A stretch of DNA of 63,722 bases, counting the filler, from Globobulimina sp. (lineage: Eukaryota), in the NCBI GenBank assembly GCA_003354225.1. It is 27 parts of 27 records of this genome, joined end to end, with 100 filler letters (N's around TTAATTAATTAA, not from the genome) between each part and the next. Parts side by side here need not be neighbours in the genome. Positions count along the whole stretch, not along the records: positions 40,198 to 42,460 come from PIVH01007791.1; 26 more parts are not named here. One strand, written 5' to 3'. The position numbers were made by a program, and so were the translations under genes. Positions 37,911 through 47,469 of the stretch are shown here, in pieces (within the stretch, counting starts at the first letter, position 1; every line of letters starts with the position of its first letter). Under the pieces are notes generated by a model that worked only from the letters and a program-made list of their open reading frames with translations, ran no database searches and was not told the DNA's origin.

Positions 37911-39458
37911 ATGTGTGATACAGCAACCAAAAAAAAACGAAAGCTAAACAATAATGAATCGAATACAAATAATAAACAGAATGATATAAATGAAATACAA
38001 GAATGCAAAGCGAATGATTTTGAAGACATTGCATTTTATTTAACAAAATCTCCATTTGCTCAAAATAATGATGGTAAATATGCATTTAATAAATATAGTT
38101 TATTTTTAGATGAAATAATAACAACTTCGGCTCCATCCTCTATCATCGAAAAATGCATAATTTTTAGTTTTAAAATTGATCCGGAATGGATGTTTGAAGC
38201 ATGTCCGATTCTAAAAAATAAAGAAAAAGTCGAACAGGTTTATATGTTTCACGGTGAATCGTTAGAAGAACACTATAATCTTTGCAATTATCAATTAATT
38301 TATGATCATTTACATTTACATAAAATTAAAATGAGTTTTTCATTTGGTACACATCACTCAAAAATGATCATTTTACTGTATAAGAATGAGGGCATTCGGA
38401 TTATGATAACATCGGCAAACATGATCCAAAGAGATTGGTGTTATAAAACTAATGGTATATATTTACAGGACTTCCCATTGAAAAGTAAAGCAATTCAATC
38501 AAATGACTTTGCCTCCACATTATATTCATACTGCAACGAATTGCGTGGTTTGAATAATAAATGTATTTTGGACTTCAATTTCTTAAACAATTATGACTTC
38601 AGTTCAGCCAAAATATTATTAATTCCATCGGTTCCTGGATATCATAAACATAATTTCTTTGGTCACAGACGATTAAGATATTTATTGTCAAAATATGATA
38701 CAAAAACAAATGATGATAACTTAGTTTTAAATGTAAGTTCCATCGGTTCCTTGACTCAGCAATGGTTAATGGATGAATTTCTGCAAGAAAGTTTCTATGG
38801 AAATAATAAAAGTGGAAAGAATTTAAAATTATTATGGCCAACAACAGAAAATGTAAGAAATAGCATTGAAGGTTATGCTGCCGGCGGTTCTTTATGTTTT
38901 TCAAAGAAATGCTGCAAACCTTTTTTATCAAAATATTTCAATAAATATAAAGCAGAGATATCGGGACGAAAACTGTTAATGCCACATATTAAAACATATT
39001 CTGTGGTTGATGTTAAACAGCGGAAATTGAGATTTTTTATATTAAGTTCAGCGAATTTATCGACAGCCGCATGGGGGAAATTGCAGAAAAATAAAAGTCA
39101 ACTTTTTATTAGATCGTTTGAGATGGGATGTTTATATTTGCCACGTGTTTATATTAATAATTATATGAAACATAGACATCGTGGCTTCAATTTAACTCAT
39201 TTGCCATTTAAAAATGTAAAACGAAATTTAAATACAAATAATGAATATGACATTAATGCTATGGATGATGTTGAATTTGAAATATTGTATCAAGTGAATA
39301 AAGCTAAAAAATCGTCAAATGGGACAAGGAAAATTATTTTCCCCATTCCAATGGAAATATTAGACACTCAAAATTATGGAAAAGAGGATAAACCATGGAT
39401 TTGGGATTTGCAATATCGAGAGCCTGACATGTATGGTAAACCATGGCCTCCTCACTGA
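37911..39458 (+). CDS. TDP1: Tyrosyl-DNA phosphodiesterase 1
   Basis: Two HxK motifs (GTHHSKM, PHIKTY), SANLSTAAWG, IRSFEMG and PW-rich C-terminus. Confidence 0.96.
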   Translation: MCDTATKKKRKLNNNESNTNNKQNDINEIQECKANDFEDIAFYLTKSPFAQNNDGKYAFNKYSLFLDEIITTSAPSSIIEKCIIFSFKIDPEWMFEACPILKNKEKVEQVYMFHGESLEEHYNLCNYQLIYDHLHLHKIKMSFSFGTHHSKMIILLYKNEGIRIMITSANMIQRDWCYKTNGIYLQDFPLKSKAIQSNDFASTLYSYCNELRGLNNKCILDFNFLNNYDFSSAKILLIPSVPGYHKHNFFGHRRLRYLLSKYDTKTNDDNLVLNVSSIGSLTQQWLMDEFLQESFYGNNKSGKNLKLLWPTTENVRNSIEGYAAGGSLCFSKKCCKPFLSKYFNKYKAEISGRKLLMPHIKTYSVVDVKQRKLRFFILSSANLSTAAWGKLQKNKSQLFIRSFEMGCLYLPRVYINNYMKHRHRGFNLTHLPFKNVKRNLNTNNEYDINAMDDVEFEILYQVNKAKKSSNGTRKIIFPIPMEILDTQNYGKEDKPWIWDLQYREPDMYGKPWPPH

Positions 39459-40197: not shown

Positions 40198-40293
40198 GAG
40201 GCATTTATATCCGATTGTTTTTATATTGTTGTTTTTTGTTATCTTTGGGTTTTTTTGGAAATTAATAGAAAAATGAAAATGAACCTAGAGTAA
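40198..40293 (+). CDS. 3' end of a hydrophobic ORF coupled (TAATG overlap) to the next gene
   Basis: EAFISDCFYIVVFCYLWVFLEINRKMKMNLE-stop; the stop overlaps the ATG at 40293. Confidence 0.5.
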   Translation, partial: EAFISDCFYIVVFCYLWVFLEINRKMKMNLE

Positions 40294-40616
40294 TGTTTAA
40301 TTATCTCAGACAATATTGGAAGCTAGCGTTACCAATTTGGTTCGTTAACCTCTTTATACCAGTTCTATATCATGTGCCTCGTGGCACTACTGAGGGATAC
40401 TGGATTACAATTGGGGAAGAGTACACTTCGTACATTTTGGTAATGTGGCCTGCCGTATTCACCAAAGCTTTTATTGAAACTTTGCCGTTTAGTTTTTTGT
40501 TTTTGCTCTTGATGACTTTGGCTTTATTTATGCACATATTCTTATGCTCATTTTTAGCTCATATGTTTGCGAGGTTGTCATTTGTAAAAAGGTTACTTAA
40601 TGAGACTACAAATTAA
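40293..40616 (+). CDS. Cassette membrane protein (2-3 TM)
   Basis: 107-aa hydrophobic ORF ending just before attC1. Confidence 0.7.
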   Translation: MFNYLRQYWKLALPIWFVNLFIPVLYHVPRGTTEGYWITIGEEYTSYILVMWPAVFTKAFIETLPFSFLFLLLMTLALFMHIFLCSFLAHMFARLSFVKRLLNETTN

Positions 40617-40618
40617 AA

Positions 40619-40696
40619 TGCTAACAAGGCAATGTTGCAGACAGTCAAAAGTTCAGCGCGCTTCCCTTTTGCCTGCAGCAAATTGCGGCGTTAGCT
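40619..40696 (+). other. attC site 1 (78 bp)
   Basis: TGCTAAC ... GTTAGCT with inner arms GCAATGTTGCAG / CTGCAGCAAATTGC. Confidence 0.88.
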
Positions 40697-40710
40697 GCTA
40701 AAGAGAAATT

Positions 40711-41388
40711 ATGAACATCGAGAAGTTCTTTATAGATTTTCAAGATTTTATGGCTCCAACGATGGATGTCTATGAACAATCTATTTACATCTACATTATT
40801 CGCCATAGCAGATTAATCGGCCAAAATGATGCTGTTATTGGTTTCAAGTCAGCAAGGAAAAAACTCGGGTATGGTGTTGGTAAAGCAAAAACACCGCCAT
40901 CCGAAGGTGTTTGCTACGAAAGACTTACAACTCTTTCTCAAAAAGGCTATATCAAAGTTTTGGGCTCTGAACGCATGGGCACCAGAATTCACGCATACCT
41001 CCCAGAAGAAATTCCTGGCTTATGTAAAGCCGGGGAAGAAAGTGTAGTAATTGACATCGAAGATATGGATTTCTTTGAGGTGCCTAAGAACAGGCTGCTA
41101 ATTCTTGAGCGAGAGAATCACGAATGCTTCTACTGTAAAGCAAAGCTCAACAGTGAAAACTACATCATGGAGCATGTCGTTAGTCGCCCTGAAGGTACTA
41201 ATTCTTATCGTAATATTGTTGCCTCTTGCCGCACATGCAACAACAAAAAAGGCCCAGAAGAAGTTTCCGCATTTATGCGCAATCTCTACCGTGAGGGGCT
41301 TCTCAGCCAAGAAGAGTTCCAAGAGGTTTTAGCTAAACTTGAAAAACTAAAAAATGGTGAGTTACAGCCGGTGGTAACATGCAGCTAA
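40711..41388 (+). CDS. Winged-helix-like domain plus HNH endonuclease (cassette gene)
   Basis: CFYC..MEHVVSRPEG.NSYRNIVASCRTCNNKKG zinc-binding HNH motif; N-terminal region ending LSQKGYIKV is typical of wHTH. Confidence 0.88.
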   Translation: MNIEKFFIDFQDFMAPTMDVYEQSIYIYIIRHSRLIGQNDAVIGFKSARKKLGYGVGKAKTPPSEGVCYERLTTLSQKGYIKVLGSERMGTRIHAYLPEEIPGLCKAGEESVVIDIEDMDFFEVPKNRLLILERENHECFYCKAKLNSENYIMEHVVSRPEGTNSYRNIVASCRTCNNKKGPEEVSAFMRNLYREGLLSQEEFQEVLAKLEKLKNGELQPVVTCS

Positions 41389-41479
41389 CAAGGCAAGGCA
41401 TCGGACTGTCAAAAGCGTCACTTAAATTGCTTACGCAATTACGTGCCACTTTTGCCAGCCCATGCTTGCGGCGTTATGT
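41383..41479 (+). other. attC site 2 (97 bp)
   Basis: AGCTAAC ... GTTATGT; CAGCTAAC is the exact complement of GTTAGCTG, which opens this cassette. Confidence 0.9.
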
Positions 41480-41495
41480 GTAAGGAAGTGTCATC

Positions 41496-41783
41496 GTGAA
41501 AAACGACGGATTAAATGATATTGAGTATGACTTCGGAGATGATAAAGAGCTCAATGAAAGAGTCAGCTTTATCCTAAATGAAACAGTCCATGTTTTTCGT
41601 TATCATCTTGATGGCAATTGGAAAACTATATACAAGCCGAAGTACGCAGCGATGCTAGCTTCTGAAATTGAGAAGAAGCCGTCTTTAATTAAGAAGCTAA
41701 TCGCTATTAAAGATCCAGTTGTTAAAAACATTACATATGCTGCAATTGATTATAATAAAGAGCACCGTAGTGAAAATACATAA
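41496..41783 (+). CDS. Cassette hypothetical protein (95 aa)
   Basis: AAGGAAG RBS, GTG start, stop inside attC3. Confidence 0.75.
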   Translation: MKNDGLNDIEYDFGDDKELNERVSFILNETVHVFRYHLDGNWKTIYKPKYAAMLASEIEKKPSLIKKLIAIKDPVVKNITYAAIDYNKEHRSENT

Positions 41784-41858
41784 CAAGGTGCGGCACAATC
41801 GCCCGCAAGCGGGCTGGACTCGTCGCTACGCTCCTCGCCTGTGCGCACGGCGTTAGGT
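41778..41858 (+). other. attC site 3 (81 bp)
   Basis: ACATAAC ... GTTAGGT; internal GCCCGC-AA-GCGGGC hairpin; ACATAAC complements the GTTATGT cassette start. Confidence 0.9.
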
Positions 41859-41861
41859 GGC

Positions 41862-42236
41862 ATGGTGATTGAGTCTCTATTGAATATTGCGAAAAATATC
41901 GATGAAGAAGACTACATTCGTGTAGAAGCTCTGAAAGATATGCTCCTAGAAATAGAAGATTATCCTCTCTCTACTGCCGAAGTAAGCAAAGCATTGATAG
42001 CAATTATTATTAATAAAAATGATGATGTTATTGTACGCCAACATGCAGCAAATGAACTTTATCATTATATCGGTGACTCTTGCCCTGATAAAAATATAAT
42101 TAATGTGATTTTAGATCAAACAGAAGATATCAATCTTAAAGTAAATTTATGTGAAGCACTGAGAGACGATGAGTCCTCTATAAAATATATTTCACAAAAC
42201 CTAAAAGAAACAGATGATCTTAATAAATACATTTAA
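41862..42236 (+). CDS. Cassette acidic HEAT-repeat-like protein
   Basis: ATG 3 nt after the core site; repeats EEDYIRVEAL, DDVIVRQHAA, EDINLKVNLC. Confidence 0.7.
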   Translation: MVIESLLNIAKNIDEEDYIRVEALKDMLLEIEDYPLSTAEVSKALIAIIINKNDDVIVRQHAANELYHYIGDSCPDKNIINVILDQTEDINLKVNLCEALRDDESSIKYISQNLKETDDLNKYI

Positions 42237-42241
42237 ACAGC

Positions 42242-42349
42242 ACCTAACAAGTCAAGGTTGCCTCACTTCGTTGGACCTTCGCAAACTGTCACCTTTTTTG
42301 TTCCAAAAAAGCCGCCAGCTTGCTACGGCCGCAACTTGAGGCGTTCTGT
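42242..42349 (+). other. attC site 4 (108 bp)
   Basis: ACCTAAC ... GTTCTGT; arms TCAAGGTTGC / GCAACTTGA; CACCTAAC complements GTTAGGTG. Confidence 0.88.
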
Positions 42350-43141
42350 GCCTAAAGAAAAGGGTTTGTCGTGAGCTGCAACAGTCAGCTTGGGTAATGG
42401 CACAATTGAAGTCAGCAATCCACCAGAGTAGTTTTTACCACCGCTCTGGTACAGTACGAANNNNNNNNNNNNNNNNNNNNNNNNNNNNNNNNNNNNNNNN
42501 NNNNTTAATTAATTAANNNNNNNNNNNNNNNNNNNNNNNNNNNNNNNNNNNNNNNNNNNNAATAATGCTAATAATATCTGTGTGGATGTATGGAGTGCTG
42601 CAGTTTCTAACGTATCCACTTACTAATAATTGGGATCGTCTTTTCCTGACAGCATTGTTCATTTTCTGTGAACGTTTTCCGTTTGTTTTTTACAAATTAA
42701 GAGTAGAAATTAAAGTTCGCTAAAACGAACAAATCGGATCTGATTGATCTTGGGCATTATTGCATTATATAATTAAATAGAAAACGCATAACAGACTGTA
42801 CGTGTCGTGTCGCGAGTGATCGATATGAGATAAAGGTGGTGAAAAGGAAGGGACATCGCACCATACATATTAATATACAGATATTGGCGACGCCGGTGAG
42901 CAATGAACATATGATTGATAATGTAGACGGATGAATATTTGCCCCAAGCGAGAGCTTCCATAAATGATATTGTGGCGAGCAATCAACTCAAAATGAAGTC
43001 CGATCACAGAATGAAAATTAGCTCAATAGTTGTGACTGTTTTTCTTCAATGACCAGTATTGAATTTTGTTAGATATTTAACAAATCGACCATTCATATAC
43101 AAGAATTTGAGTGTGAGATGCAGTTACAAATAAGAAATGTG

Positions 43142-44823
43142 TTATACTTTTGATATCTGATTTGCAACCACAAGTACATCATATGCATCGTTTTTAATCC
43201 ACAGCTCCATAACGAGATTCACTTTATTTCCCCCAGCTTTACCATCATATGTTCCCTTTTCATATCGTTCTTTTGCATGAGCAGCTTTCAGAGGACTTGA
43301 CTTAAGTGCTTTTATTGTCATTGTACTCAAATTCCATGACTTATTCTTTTTCCTCATACTCTTCATATGCAAATATTCTCCTATTTCGCGATATATTCCT
43401 CATAATGTCATCACTTAATTCTATGTTGCTAATTTCTATTTTTTCTACTTTCGGATATAAACATTGCAATACATCCATCTGAATCCACTCATACTTTTTA
43501 TCATATGCGTGTTTTCGTGCACAGCAATTCAAATAATTCTGTATATTTCTGCAGCACCATATAATTCACTGTCAGCTCAGTTTTATTTTCAAAATGCACA
43601 TTGAGCAGCTTTTGGCCGTATTCGTGCAAACTTTTAATTCGTTTGCACTTAAAATCTCCGCCATGGCCATGAATACATAATTGGTGCGCAACAATATGGG
43701 CTTCCAGGTGAACATAAACATCGCTTTCATGAAAATGCGCCTCACACAACATCCTATCAATTCTTTTCAATGCATCCAAAATCCAATAAAATTCAACACC
43801 GACAGTGTCCCGAATATTTTTGATTTGCAGCGGGTCTCTATTTTGTAGAAATAGACGTTCTTTCTCGTGCGGGAAATCCGATAACCAGTCAGTTGAAAAG
43901 TATTTAGCTTTCGATGTTTTGCCGCCAAATGTCATGATCAAACCTTTATCATTCTGAGCAAAATTAATTGCAACTTCCAGACTCGAAGAGGTAGACAATG
44001 GGCAGAAAATACTTATTCCTCTGCCTAAATCGCCCACAATTTGGGGTGGAATCAATTTTTGGTTCACGCCATGGTGGAATTTGCGAATGCTTCCATCTTT
44101 GATACAAGTTCCAAAGTCCAGCACTGTCTCTTTCAGCAATTTGCCTAAATGGTAGAATTGCGTATGATCGAATCCATGGTTGTTTCTGTAGGTGTCACTG
44201 AATGCTGCTTGCAACGAATCAAAATTGCAATAAAGCATCACAGCTAACAAATGTTGATGGGAGATAGTGGCGAAATGTTTATTACCTTTTCTAAAATATG
44301 ACTCATAGTGCAATTTAGATTGAATGTATTGATGATCAAACTGTTCCTTTGCAAGGCGTACTGGTAACTGATTGCATGTTACTTCAGCTCTCAATGATTC
44401 ATATTTCGCTGTGACATAAATGACTTTTGTATGCATGCCAGAGATCTCATCCTTCTTTTCATCACTTTTGGCATCGTACATAAACTCGAAACCAAACATA
44501 AACATTCTATCACCAATATTAATGTCGTCGATATCTGTGTAGAGCTGGTTGTATTTTTTAGTTATTCGCATTTTGTTGTTTATATAGATATCATTTGTTT
44601 TCTCCTCGTTGTTGGCGTTGTGATGATAAAGAAAACAATGGATTTTGTCGAGAATTGACAGTCTGGCAATGTACTCTGGGTCAGCCCTTTCAATATGAAC
44701 TGGTATTGGTCGCTCTCGTCGCTCTCGATAGTGTCTAGCATATATTCTGCAGGTTGGTACATCACAATTATTAATATCATGTGTTGCTTGATATTGTGTA
44801 TCCAAATAATGCAATACCTGATG
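43142..44823 (-). CDS. ADP-ribosyltransferase-like domain protein; 5'-partial, C-terminus frame-disrupted
   Basis: KFHHGV / PLSTSSSLEVAINFA / SDFPHEKERLF follow R-S-E ART motif order. Confidence 0.6.
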
Positions 44824-45656: not shown

Positions 45657-47186
45657 ATGAAAATTGCTCAGAAAATAGTATATAAAAATTATATATTAGA
45701 TAACATTCGAAATTTGGCAAATGATGAACGTTTAACTGATGTAACATTTATTGTCGAAGACGAAGAATTTTATGGTATTCGATCATTATTTGGATGCCAA
45801 TCAATTGTGTTTCGGCAAATGTTATATGGATCAATGATGGAATCAAACCCAGGAAATTGCGTTATTTTAAATGATATAACAATCAAAGCATTTAAATATA
45901 TACGAAATACTTTTTATAATATATTTGAAAATGAATTAACTGCATTAATTGTTGTCGATGTCTTATGTGCAGCGAAAAAATATTTAATTGAGCCATTAAC
46001 AAAAAAATGTTTAAATTTCATAAAAAATATAACCGATGTTGGTGACTGGTATTTTGTTTTAAATAAATTTGAAGAATCACCATTCTACATTTCAAATGAT
46101 TTTATTCTTGAAATAATAAATATTTCCGAACCGCCATATATTTTACAATATAAATCGTTGCAATTTATTCAAAATAAAAGATTTAAATATTTAAAATACG
46201 AAACAGTTTTAATTTTAATTTCTTCCGACAATTTAGCTGTGCAGGAAGACGAGATTTGGCAGTCTTTATTAAAATGGACACGATTCAATGCCAAAAATTC
46301 AGACGAAACAACAAATATAAATGCATTTGGATATGATGAGGAATCCAAAGATTTGGAAGACAGTGAAAACGAAAGGGAAGAAAGTGTAGAAAGTGCAGAA
46401 AGTGCAGAAAATGAAAAAGAAAATATAATATTAAATGAGACGGAGAAAGATTTGATGAATGGCTTCATAAAATATATACGTTTTAATCAGATGACATCAA
46501 TGTATTTAAAAGAGAACATTGTGGAAAAAAGAGTGTTATTACCGAGAGATATTATAAATATTATGTTTGCGCGGGAAAATGGGGTAAAATGGAAATCAAA
46601 ATTTAATGCTAAGCCACGAATAAAAGCAAAGGCAATGGATACTTTTCAATTAAACGAAGTCTGTTTGTCTTTAAAAGAAATAAAATCATTAAACGTTGGC
46701 GATTTAGTCGATTTTCGTGATTTTTATGGTTTATTTTGCTCGGCTTCAGTTATTGAGGTTGATCACAATGAAAATAAAATAAAAATGCATTACAATTCAT
46801 GGGGTTCTACGTATGATGAATGGTATAATTATTTATCTGATGATAATAATGTTGCTAATGATGAGCGAATAACATTGCTGCAAAAAGATAAAAATTCTCG
46901 AATCGCTAAATTTGGATCGATCACTAATCGGAAAATAAAAAGAGAATATTTCCGTGAAAAAATTGAGCGATTTAGTGATAATATAAATAATTCAAATAAC
47001 GAATGCCAGGTTAAATTAACAAATTGGTTTTGGAAAAAAAATGAAAGTTATATTGTTAATAAATATTTATATATCAATAAATGGTTAAATGCAAAAGTTA
47101 TTGGATTTAAAACTGCTGCAAAATATTCGCATCATATTAAAATAGGAATATATATAAACGATGAACATTTTGAGTATTGGATACAT
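45657..47186 (+). CDS. BTB-BACK plus Tudor-knot/chromo-barrel-like domain protein, 3'-partial
   Basis: DVTFIVE..SIVFRQMLYG; EDEIWQSLLKW; VGDLVDFRD..ASVIEVD..KMHYNSWGSTYDEW. Confidence 0.85.
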
Positions 47187-47469
47187 NNNNNNNNNNNNNN
47201 NNNNNNNNNNNNNNNNNNNNNNNNNNNNNNTTAATTAATTAANNNNNNNNNNNNNNNNNNNNNNNNNNNNNNNNNNNNNNNNNNNNAAACTGTATTCCTC
47301 AAAGTCGAAAACTGTATTCTTCATCGCTTGAACTAAAAGCAAAAACTCTTATGCGTCCACATTTGGTTATTAATAGATATCTGCTCCATAAACAAAAAAT
47401 GGATAAAATCATATAACAAAACTAAAAAAAAAAGAAATTTCGATCAGTCAACAATAATAAATAGTAAAT

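Follow-up and report, generated by a model that had tools for sequence, protein, structure and literature searches.

A one-gene integron cassette encoding a winged-helix HNH protein of a widely scattered family

The DNA analysed here is a 63,722-base window made of 27 unrelated pieces of about 2263 bp each from the Globobulimina sp. assembly GCA_003354225.1, separated by spacers of N44, 12 nt and N44. Our subject is a plus-strand gene at 40711..41388, which runs from ATG to TAA and encodes a 225-amino-acid (aa) protein with an N-terminal winged helix (wH) and an HNH nuclease domain. The gene is the single occupant of an integron cassette, and related genes occur in genomes assigned to more than ten phyla. 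Because the other pieces of the window are unrelated, the true context of the gene is the 2.26-kb piece 40198–42460 alone (record PIVH01007791.1, GC 0.393), and neither an integrase gene nor an attI is visible in it.

The cassette, its gene and the encoded protein

The cassette spans 783 bp (40691..41473, plus strand), with limits taken from two GTT sites, and its sole long plus-strand open reading frame (ORF) is 40711–41388. Cassette crossover takes place between the G and the TT of GTT. The 5′ boundary is the GTT at 40690–40692, which belongs to the attC of the preceding cassette (40617..40698, plus strand), and the HNH ORF begins 20 nt past this boundary. The 3′ boundary is the GTT at 41473–41475 within the cassette's own attC (41381..41481, plus strand), and the stop codon of the gene falls inside the R'' box (GCTAAC) of this site. 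Two further sites of the piece, at 41776–41860 and 42240–42351, align with the first two, giving four attC-type repeats of the shared form (C/A)TAACAAG...GGCGTT.

The bottom strands of these repeats fold as R-box/spacer/L-box hairpins with a stem, a two-base gap and a second stem, as expected of attC (z-scores of −2.66, −4.46, −1.45 and −3.66 in site order). The hairpin of the preceding attC reaches −19.1 kcal/mol, and a covariance model scores this site at 82.5 bits; the cassette's own attC folds at −26.1 kcal/mol, with none of 200 shuffles as good, and scores 85.3 bits. A consensus fold of all four sites contains 15 pairs, and compensatory changes are found in 9 of the 15. The segment 40691–41473 is a single-gene, attC-bounded integron cassette. 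Just 5′ of the ATG, a purine-rich stretch that we read from the sequence, AAAGAGAAA (40700..40708, plus strand), is possibly a weak ribosome-binding site; we found no sigma-70-like plus-strand promoter site between the upstream attC and the ATG.

Residues 124–184 of the protein (41080..41262, plus strand) form the HNH core, a beta-beta-alpha-Me fold with a Cys4 zinc site that is identified by Pfam, PDB profiles and Foldseek alike. Pfam HNH (PF01844) reaches 32.3 bits (E 1.1e-7) over residues 139–182, above its cutoff of 21.4, and HNH_5 passes with 27.9 bits against 27.5. Nine residues of the core (C139, C142, E154, H155, N168, C173, C176, N177 and N178) are invariant across the query and 26 relatives (27/27). 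Across 76 aligned sequences, with identities down to 28%, C139 and N168 never vary, and at least 90% of the sequences keep H155, C142, C173, C176 and N177. H155, encoded at 41173–41175, is the His of the MEH motif; the catalytic or metal roles of H155, N168 and N177 are presumably those of their counterparts in other HNH enzymes, being assigned by analogy. With its Cys4 zinc site and full H-N-N catalytic set, the protein is, judging by its sequence, a catalytically complete HNH nuclease.

An AlphaFold2 (AF2) model of the full protein has a mean predicted local distance difference test score (pLDDT) of 94.5 and a predicted template-modelling score (pTM) of 0.58. Residues 1–98 (40711–41004, plus strand) are modelled as two N-terminal helices and a winged helix, an assignment that draws on AF2, Foldseek and weak profile matches. 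The secondary structure of residues 3–95 follows the order H-H-E-H-H-E-E, with a helix at 20–31, a strand at 40–43, a helix at 45–51, a long conserved loop at 52–64, the recognition helix at 65–77 and the wing at 81–95. A variable linker of lower confidence follows (residues 99–123; 41005..41079, plus strand; pLDDT 74–81 in the blocks of 101–120), which ends in a conserved DFF in the alignment. The C-terminal region (residues 185–225; 41263..41385, plus strand) is a helical hairpin of helices 185–194 and 200–214 in the model, and the alignment shows a conserved G-E-L-x-P tail; this region gives a weak SHOCT-like match (E 0.0019). In the 27-sequence alignment, R190, Y193, R194, L213, G216 and P220 are invariant in the C-terminal region, as are D19, Y21, E22, Q23, Y26, R31, F45, K46, S47, R49, G55, G57, E65, Y69, L75, K78, E87, G90, R92 and P98 in the N-terminal domain.

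Modelled alone with 71 relatives, the N-terminal domain reaches a pLDDT of 89.8 and a pTM of 0.82. Foldseek against the PDB returns generic winged helices only (Zur, Cdc6/ORC WH, CodY, MarR, PadR and RTP), with a best E of 1.6e-2 and TM scores of 0.4–0.5, and sequence profiles match weakly to Fur, LexA, CodY and LrpA. A protein atlas searched with residues 1–118 gives generic helix-turn-helix leads with scores of at most 0.87, and residues 1–120 have no family match in Pfam, NCBIfam, PADLOC or PHROGs. A sensor of the sulfur-binding ScoMcrA type or of the DpnI type was also considered, and neither is among the N-terminal Foldseek matches listed; the full-length model gives weak matches to ScoMcrA (5zmm, E 2.9e-2) and McrA (6ghc, E 8.2e-3).

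The initial annotation had described a 225-aa ORF at 40711..41388 with an N-terminal winged helix-turn-helix (wHTH)-like region, a Cys4 HNH domain of the H-N-N type and a helical tail. The ORF is present exactly as described, and AF2, Pfam and the alignment confirm all three regions. On the models, wHTH is correct as a fold class, and none of the characterised sensor families accommodates the domain.

When two copies were modelled together, they paired symmetrically through residues 3–35 and 50–63, that is, the N-terminal helices and the H2–H3 loop. The interface score ipSAE is 0.52 (0.51, 0.52 and 0.53 in separate runs), against 0.00 for the best of three controls; among proteins of solved structure, this mark is attained by 20 of 30 that are pairs of one chain and by 1 of 23 that are single chains. 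At least 61% of contacts agree between runs, and the partner pLDDT is at least 83. These models support a putative symmetric N-terminal dimer. The invariant residues D19, Y21, Q23, R31, G55 and G57 lie inside the predicted interface, and the invariants outside it (K46, S47, R49, E65, Y69, K78 and R92) are candidate DNA contacts, as we infer from the model.

All ORFs of the piece point one way, each toward its own attC. The neighbouring one-gene cassettes encode a 107-aa hydrophobic protein (40293–40616), a 95-aa protein (41496–41783) and a protein of about 124–131 aa with a weak HEAT_2 match (41841–42236, E 0.015). For the last, ATG 41865 is the likelier start, because GTG 41841 lies upstream of the cassette boundary. 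The three neighbouring ORFs have no family match in Pfam, PADLOC, NCBIfam or PHROGs, and 42345–42460 is the beginning of a fifth cassette in the piece. The remaining pieces of the window are AT-rich and carry long unrelated ORFs, for example at 37911–39458, 43501–44814 (minus strand) and 45657–47234.

Family spread, mobility and genomic neighbours

Relatives of the protein are numerous: 478 of 613 candidate proteins match at E<=1e-3, with a best E of 1.6e-136, which places the gene well outside what chance would give. The 120 relatives listed are 203–251 aa long, share 52–93% identity and cover 85–100% of the query; named carriers include Kangiella sp. TOML190 (79% identity), Polaromonas, Pseudomonas and Acidobacteria. 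An exhaustive search of 1.84 billion representatives returned 1759 at E<=1e-3, 292 at <=1e-10 and 47 at <=1e-30, and many of these relatives are full-length down to about 30% identity. The family keeps a constant architecture of about 225 aa with a fixed domain order. Fused forms of 395–2000 aa were sought and none was found, which is weak evidence. A domain scan of twelve proteins, chiefly N-terminally extended representatives, showed nothing besides HNH except in P0167, a 947-aa protein of different architecture, and in P0239, which has a weak MarR_2 match.

A relative is encoded in 143 stretches of species-representative genomes, and 80 loci were retained. The carriers include metagenome-assembled genomes (MAGs) of Thermodesulfobacteriota, Pseudomonadota, Planctomycetota, Acidobacteriota, Verrucomicrobiota, Bacteroidota, Nitrospirota, Myxococcota, Armatimonadota, Elusimicrobiota, Gemmatimonadota and Methylomirabilota, as well as a single methanogen MAG and a single isolate (Roseinatronobacter ekhonensis). 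A tblastn search of 50,697 phage records found no full-length relative, and the same search of 72,556 plasmid records gave two partial matches to the HNH core only (41–44% of the query).

The association with attC recurs outside the window. An attC starts at the stop codon, or within a few bases of it, in 9 of the 79 loci with a readable stop (L003, L004, L010, L014, L021, L031, L042, L046 and L071), and two more (L009 and L054) are borderline. This count is a lower bound, because the strict attC scan initially missed 2 of the 4 sites in the window. The covariance model built from those four sites proved too specific and, among the relatives, found L042 and a few weak matches. At L042 (8181–10753, a Polyangiaceae MAG), at least four attC of one type are present; the HNH relative occupies one cassette, and an ankyrin-repeat protein the preceding one. 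IntI-like integrases (Phage_int_SAM_4 plus Phage_integrase) adjoin the relative in 3 of the 74 loci in which the target ORF was located (L004, L014 and L031).

A quick maximum-likelihood tree of 75 sequences, in which L071 is unlabelled and L010 is not included, places the attC-bearing copies without order. The eight labelled attC-bearing rows need 8 changes on the tree, against a shuffle mean of 7.8, and at least five of these are forced by well-supported branches. The attC-bearing copies are scattered on the tree, and the tree disagrees with taxonomy. Near-identical proteins occur in different phyla: L053 and L056 match L072 (Acidobacteriota versus Verrucomicrobiota), and L016 matches L018 (Pseudomonas versus Acidobacteria). 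Such identity implies very recent transfer, unless the bins are contaminated.

Up to four neighbours on either side of the ORFs located in 74 of the 80 loci were clustered, and the largest family reaches 4 of the 74 loci; with no conserved neighbour there is no obligatory partner. Pfam was run on the 265 neighbours that lie no more than two genes away. Toxin-antitoxin components adjoin the relative in 10/74, and integrases, transposases, a resolvase or a relaxase lie near it in 9/74. Restriction-modification parts are found within two genes in four loci, as a methyltransferase domain in L051, L080 and L052 and as a type I S subunit in L076. The other 70 have no methylase domain within two genes, and in two of these four the methylase gene itself is disrupted. 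The initial annotation placed the gene by itself in a cassette lacking any methylase or antitoxin, which the single ORF between two attC sites confirms; the relatives likewise have no conserved neighbour. The family is very patchy, single-copy and horizontally scattered, and has no obligatory neighbour. At L023 (9260–9985), a different HNH gene with homing-endonuclease-associated repeats (HNH_repeat plus HNH) lies directly upstream of the relative, and a DUF7380/DUF4209 protein is encoded downstream of it.

The two disrupted methylases share one arrangement, seen in 2 of the 80 loci only. In a Fimbriimonadaceae MAG (L051, 9570–11409) and a Chloracidobacterium MAG (L080, 9540–11462), the HNH relative replaces the middle, that is, the target-recognition region, of an N6/N4 methylase-Mrr_cat gene. 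The N-terminal methylase fragment, matching Pfam N6_N4_Mtase positions 1–53/58, stops at '...GSLYLHC' just 5′ of the HNH start, with the same 5′ breakpoint in both. Past the HNH stop the methylase resumes, as 'YPTQKP...DPFCGCGTT' in L051 and as 'DDDVILDPFCGCGTT' in L080, and is followed by Mrr_cat; the three parts lie in different reading frames. Intact methylase-Mrr relatives are 440–471 aa long with a continuous methylase domain. The idea that the middle of these intact proteins is itself a degenerate wH-HNH was rejected (hhalign probability 0.3%).

Between the two loci a 1.5-kb block is homologous and its flanks are unrelated. Identity is about 54% in the N fragment, 47–62% in the HNH relative, and about 36% overall in the C part, with 54% at its start. 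All pieces being homologous and open in both loci, the arrangement points to one old event. Roughly 100 of the 120 best relatives (P0271–P0390) of the methylase C part plus Mrr protein at L080:10644–11462 consist of the C part only, at 181–381 aa, so a split at that methylase point seems common. The embedded arrangement fits both conflict avoidance by a modification-dependent nuclease and homing-like insertion, and does not settle which applies.

Relation to described nucleases

The closest architecture by description is that of the winged-helix HNH proteins of Helbrecht et al. 2024 (PMC11037411). In the accessible text of that paper, these are single chains of 224–283 aa, mostly haloarchaeal, and are read as type IV restriction enzymes dependent on N6-methyladenine (m6A); several have a toxicity that is 10- to 1000-fold higher in Dam+ than in Dam− Escherichia coli. 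The accessible text also reports that some wH-HNH genes co-occur with Eco57I-like or inactivated adjacent methylases, and names SruGXI (232 aa) and HpaD253I (234 aa) as modification-dependent examples. Measured against the available description of this class, our family agrees in its single chain of about 225–235 aa, its N-terminal wH followed by a C-terminal HNH and its lack of a cognate methylase, and in its occasional methylase neighbours, whether of the Eco57I/MmeI type (next door in L052) or disrupted (L051 and L080). It differs in that the described proteins are haloarchaeal and were found through a DpnI-like wH; the two groups are compared by description only. None of 270 relatives (P0001–P0270) has a haloarchaeal acidic composition. 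Relative to the wH-HNH type IV proteins as described in the accessible text, the cassette family adds a dimerising N-terminal helix pair, which is predicted, and the C-terminal helical hairpin. Kangiella, Polaromonas, Roseinatronobacter, Desulfobacula and wH-HNH have no occurrence in the supplements of PMC11037411. A modular sensor-plus-nuclease model, with the wH as a recent sensor type, is set out in the available part of PMC12191111.

The vehicle has its own precedent. The available text of Darracq et al. (10.1101/2024.07.02.601686) describes single-gene defence nucleases in cassettes of the Vibrio cholerae chromosomal integron, among them the validated anti-phage His-Me proteins Sirona and Nemetona, for which it reports kinship with a type II restriction domain and with lambda NinG (PF05766); Sirona is widespread outside Vibrio. 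Compared by description in that text, the present gene resembles Sirona and Nemetona as a one-gene integron cassette for a His-Me finger nuclease with no partner. It differs from the Sirona and Nemetona of the available text in having no PF05766 match at E<=1, and the PHROG NinG/Rap match (E 0.0091) is confined to the HNH core.

The nearest HNH cores are those of IscB, Cas9 (II-C/II-D) and the Gme HNH nickase 4h9d, which share the layout CxxC...[D/E]H...N...CxxCN. PDB profiles match the Cas9d/IscB type (type II-D Cas9-like) at 1.8e-13 and the Gme HNH 4h9d at 2.9e-10, and the best Foldseek matches of the core are Cas9 HNH domains. The likeness ends there: only about 60 residues match, and there is no RuvC, guide RNA or partner. 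The NCBIfam IscB model gives E 3.6e-10 with 39.5 bits against a cutoff of 175. The HNH of Septu PtuB and of retrons has a similar core (best PADLOC E 9.1e-7; TIGR02646 E 2.1e-4), but this match is limited to residues ~131–190, or about 50–60 residues of models 156–268 long, and neither in the window nor in the 74 loci does a PtuA ATPase or a retron adjoin the gene.

PHROG matches cover residues ~120–220 only, and weak endonuclease VII and NinG/Rap matches appear in the libraries. A phage packaging or replication HNH was rejected: with core-only PHROG matches and no full-length match among the phage records, the gene is not one of these known phage families, which the initial annotation had listed as a possible refutation. 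Nor does the gene fit a free-standing HNH homing endonuclease, there being no phage matches and no recurrent target gene.

A full-length model of the family is absent from Pfam, NCBIfam 20.0, PADLOC 2.0.0 and PHROGs 4. We found no paper on this HNH family by full-text searches of the literature, a weak negative as text searches are blind to sequence families, and the word HNH does not occur in the Kieffer BRiC preprint, a cassette-recovery preprint, and PMC13069673. The proposal of an undescribed system therefore stands for the family, which has no full-length match in the libraries, but not for the architecture or the vehicle, both of which have already been described. What is new is new at family level only: a described architecture on a described vehicle.

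Proposed function and alternatives

Our leading reading, held tentatively and somewhat short of probable, is that the gene encodes a partner-free, type IV-like restriction or defence nuclease. By analogy with the described wH-HNH enzymes, modified DNA would be the leading candidate for its target. In the mechanism we propose, a dimer formed through the N-terminal helices and the H2–H3 loop would bring together two recognition helices, along with two HNH domains on flexible tethers. The dimeric winged helix would bind a DNA feature missing from the host chromosome; a modified base, as in type IV restriction, leads among the candidates, ahead of a rare symmetric site and a structure of phage replication. 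Cleavage of both strands close by would then fall to the two HNH domains, and host DNA would be spared because the feature is missing from it, while a cassette in the distal part of an array would also be barely transcribed.

The accessible text of PMC11037411 prints an argument that bears on this point, namely that stand-alone wH fusion nucleases need modified DNA and would otherwise be toxic. The initial annotation reasoned in the same way that a nuclease moving without a protective partner must be conditionally active. The argument itself thus has a printed counterpart in the accessible part of that paper, but the 'must' is too strong: in a cassette without a promoter-like site, low expression is an alternative to conditional activity.

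That alternative is the first of several observations that weigh against a defence function. The proposed enrichment in defence islands was not found. Using PADLOC matches at E<=1e-10 for random ORFs of at least 80 aa, we counted 11 of 150 ORFs near the relative (<=2.5 kb; 150 of 382 drawn) and 7 of 150 far from it (>=6.5 kb; 150 of 218 drawn), with a Fisher p of 0.47. The near matches are mostly generic, examples being ABC ATPases that match mad3, a sigma-54 activator that matches RtcR and a UvrB that matches PbeA, and only about three look specific (DrmD-like, PDC-S03/Uma2 and SoFic). The test is a weak one, as toxin-antitoxin modules are for the most part outside PADLOC and the ORFs were called naively. 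Many relatives are flanked by housekeeping genes, including ValRS, HisRS/AspRS, GroEL, pyruvate kinase, PTA, dUTPase and RNase H. The wH sensor domain is 53–60% identical across phyla, which is unusually conserved for an arms-race gene, and part of this conservation falls in the predicted dimer interface. Two copies carry an in-frame stop in the N-terminal domain (L047:10001–10348 and L048:5294–5641) and are probably decaying. DpnI is absent from the 50 listed Foldseek matches of the N-terminal domain and from its listed PDB sequence matches; with no specific likeness to a DpnI-type wH among the matches listed, the reading as a modification-dependent enzyme is drawn from architecture and not from homology.

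Several of these observations would also suit a selfish mobile endonuclease, which would make a site-specific break and spread by repair or by cassette recombination without benefit to the host. A single gene without a partner, often alone among housekeeping genes, is what such an element would look like, as are the incongruence of the tree with taxonomy, the near-identical copies in different phyla and the pseudogenes L047 and L048, and the replacement of the methylase middle at one shared 5′ breakpoint after GSLYLHC in L051 and L080 resembles an insertion. Against this, no target recurs: the methylase context is confined to 2/80 loci, no neighbour family exceeds 4/74, the 50,697 phage records yield no relative, and the gene was not seen within an intron or intein. 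Homing needs flanking homology and therefore cannot explain spread between phyla, and MAG binning errors could mimic the inter-phylum identity. In L051 and L080, moreover, the HNH and methylase fragments have co-diverged to about 55–60% identity with their ORFs open, which argues for one old event and not for repeated homing. We consider a selfish element unlikely.

Equally, the protein could be a poorly specific nuclease that is kept silent and would be tolerated only because its promoterless cassette is scarcely expressed. Cassettes depend on the array promoter for their expression. Placed near attI and Pc, or induced, such a nuclease would act as a suicide (abortive-infection-like) effector or be a costly passenger. 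The lack of a plus-strand promoter-like site between the upstream attC and the ATG agrees with this reading, as do the lack of an immunity or antitoxin gene and the 10 loci of 74 in which toxin-antitoxin components are neighbours. However, at least 65 of 79 loci have no attC in the strict scan, and many relatives sit in ordinary chromosomal contexts where transcription is likely, while the conservation of the winged helix, with a domain order that does not vary, points to a targeted and not an indiscriminate nuclease. This explanation, too, we regard as improbable.

An accessory DNA-processing enzyme, structure- or site-specific and serving host or integron recombination or repair, is very unlikely: the HNH superfamily does include junction-resolving and nicking enzymes (compare 4h9d and the weak endonuclease VII and NinG/Rap matches), and high cross-phylum conservation without defence-island enrichment would suit one, but patchy single-copy occurrence with horizontal scatter is typical of accessory genes and not of repair, and no linkage to repair or recombination genes is seen in the 74 loci.

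The restriction or defence nuclease can also be taken in a bolder form, which we think has a small chance of being right. Here the family would be a partner-free, phylum-independent immune nuclease whose sensor founds a lineage of its own: a winged helix that dimerises through an extra N-terminal helix pair and reads a mark or structure common among phages, so that the same protein could work unchanged from Gammaproteobacteria to Planctomycetota. It would spread as a silent cassette, and the two methylase-embedded copies would mean that it can gain a foothold by disrupting the methylase that sets the mark under attack.

If the protein is not protective, the family would cleanly illustrate how a selfish or silent nuclease can be carried on integron cassettes, with consequences for the inference of cassette function from domain content alone. 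If it is protective, it would be a very compact (225 aa) and widespread defence gene, with 1759 representatives and carriers among the MAGs of more than ten phyla, and another case of integron arrays storing single-gene immunity. Among DNA-feature sensors fused to HNH, its winged helix would in that case represent a second lineage, unrelated to the first, and might serve as a reagent for the detection of modified DNA.

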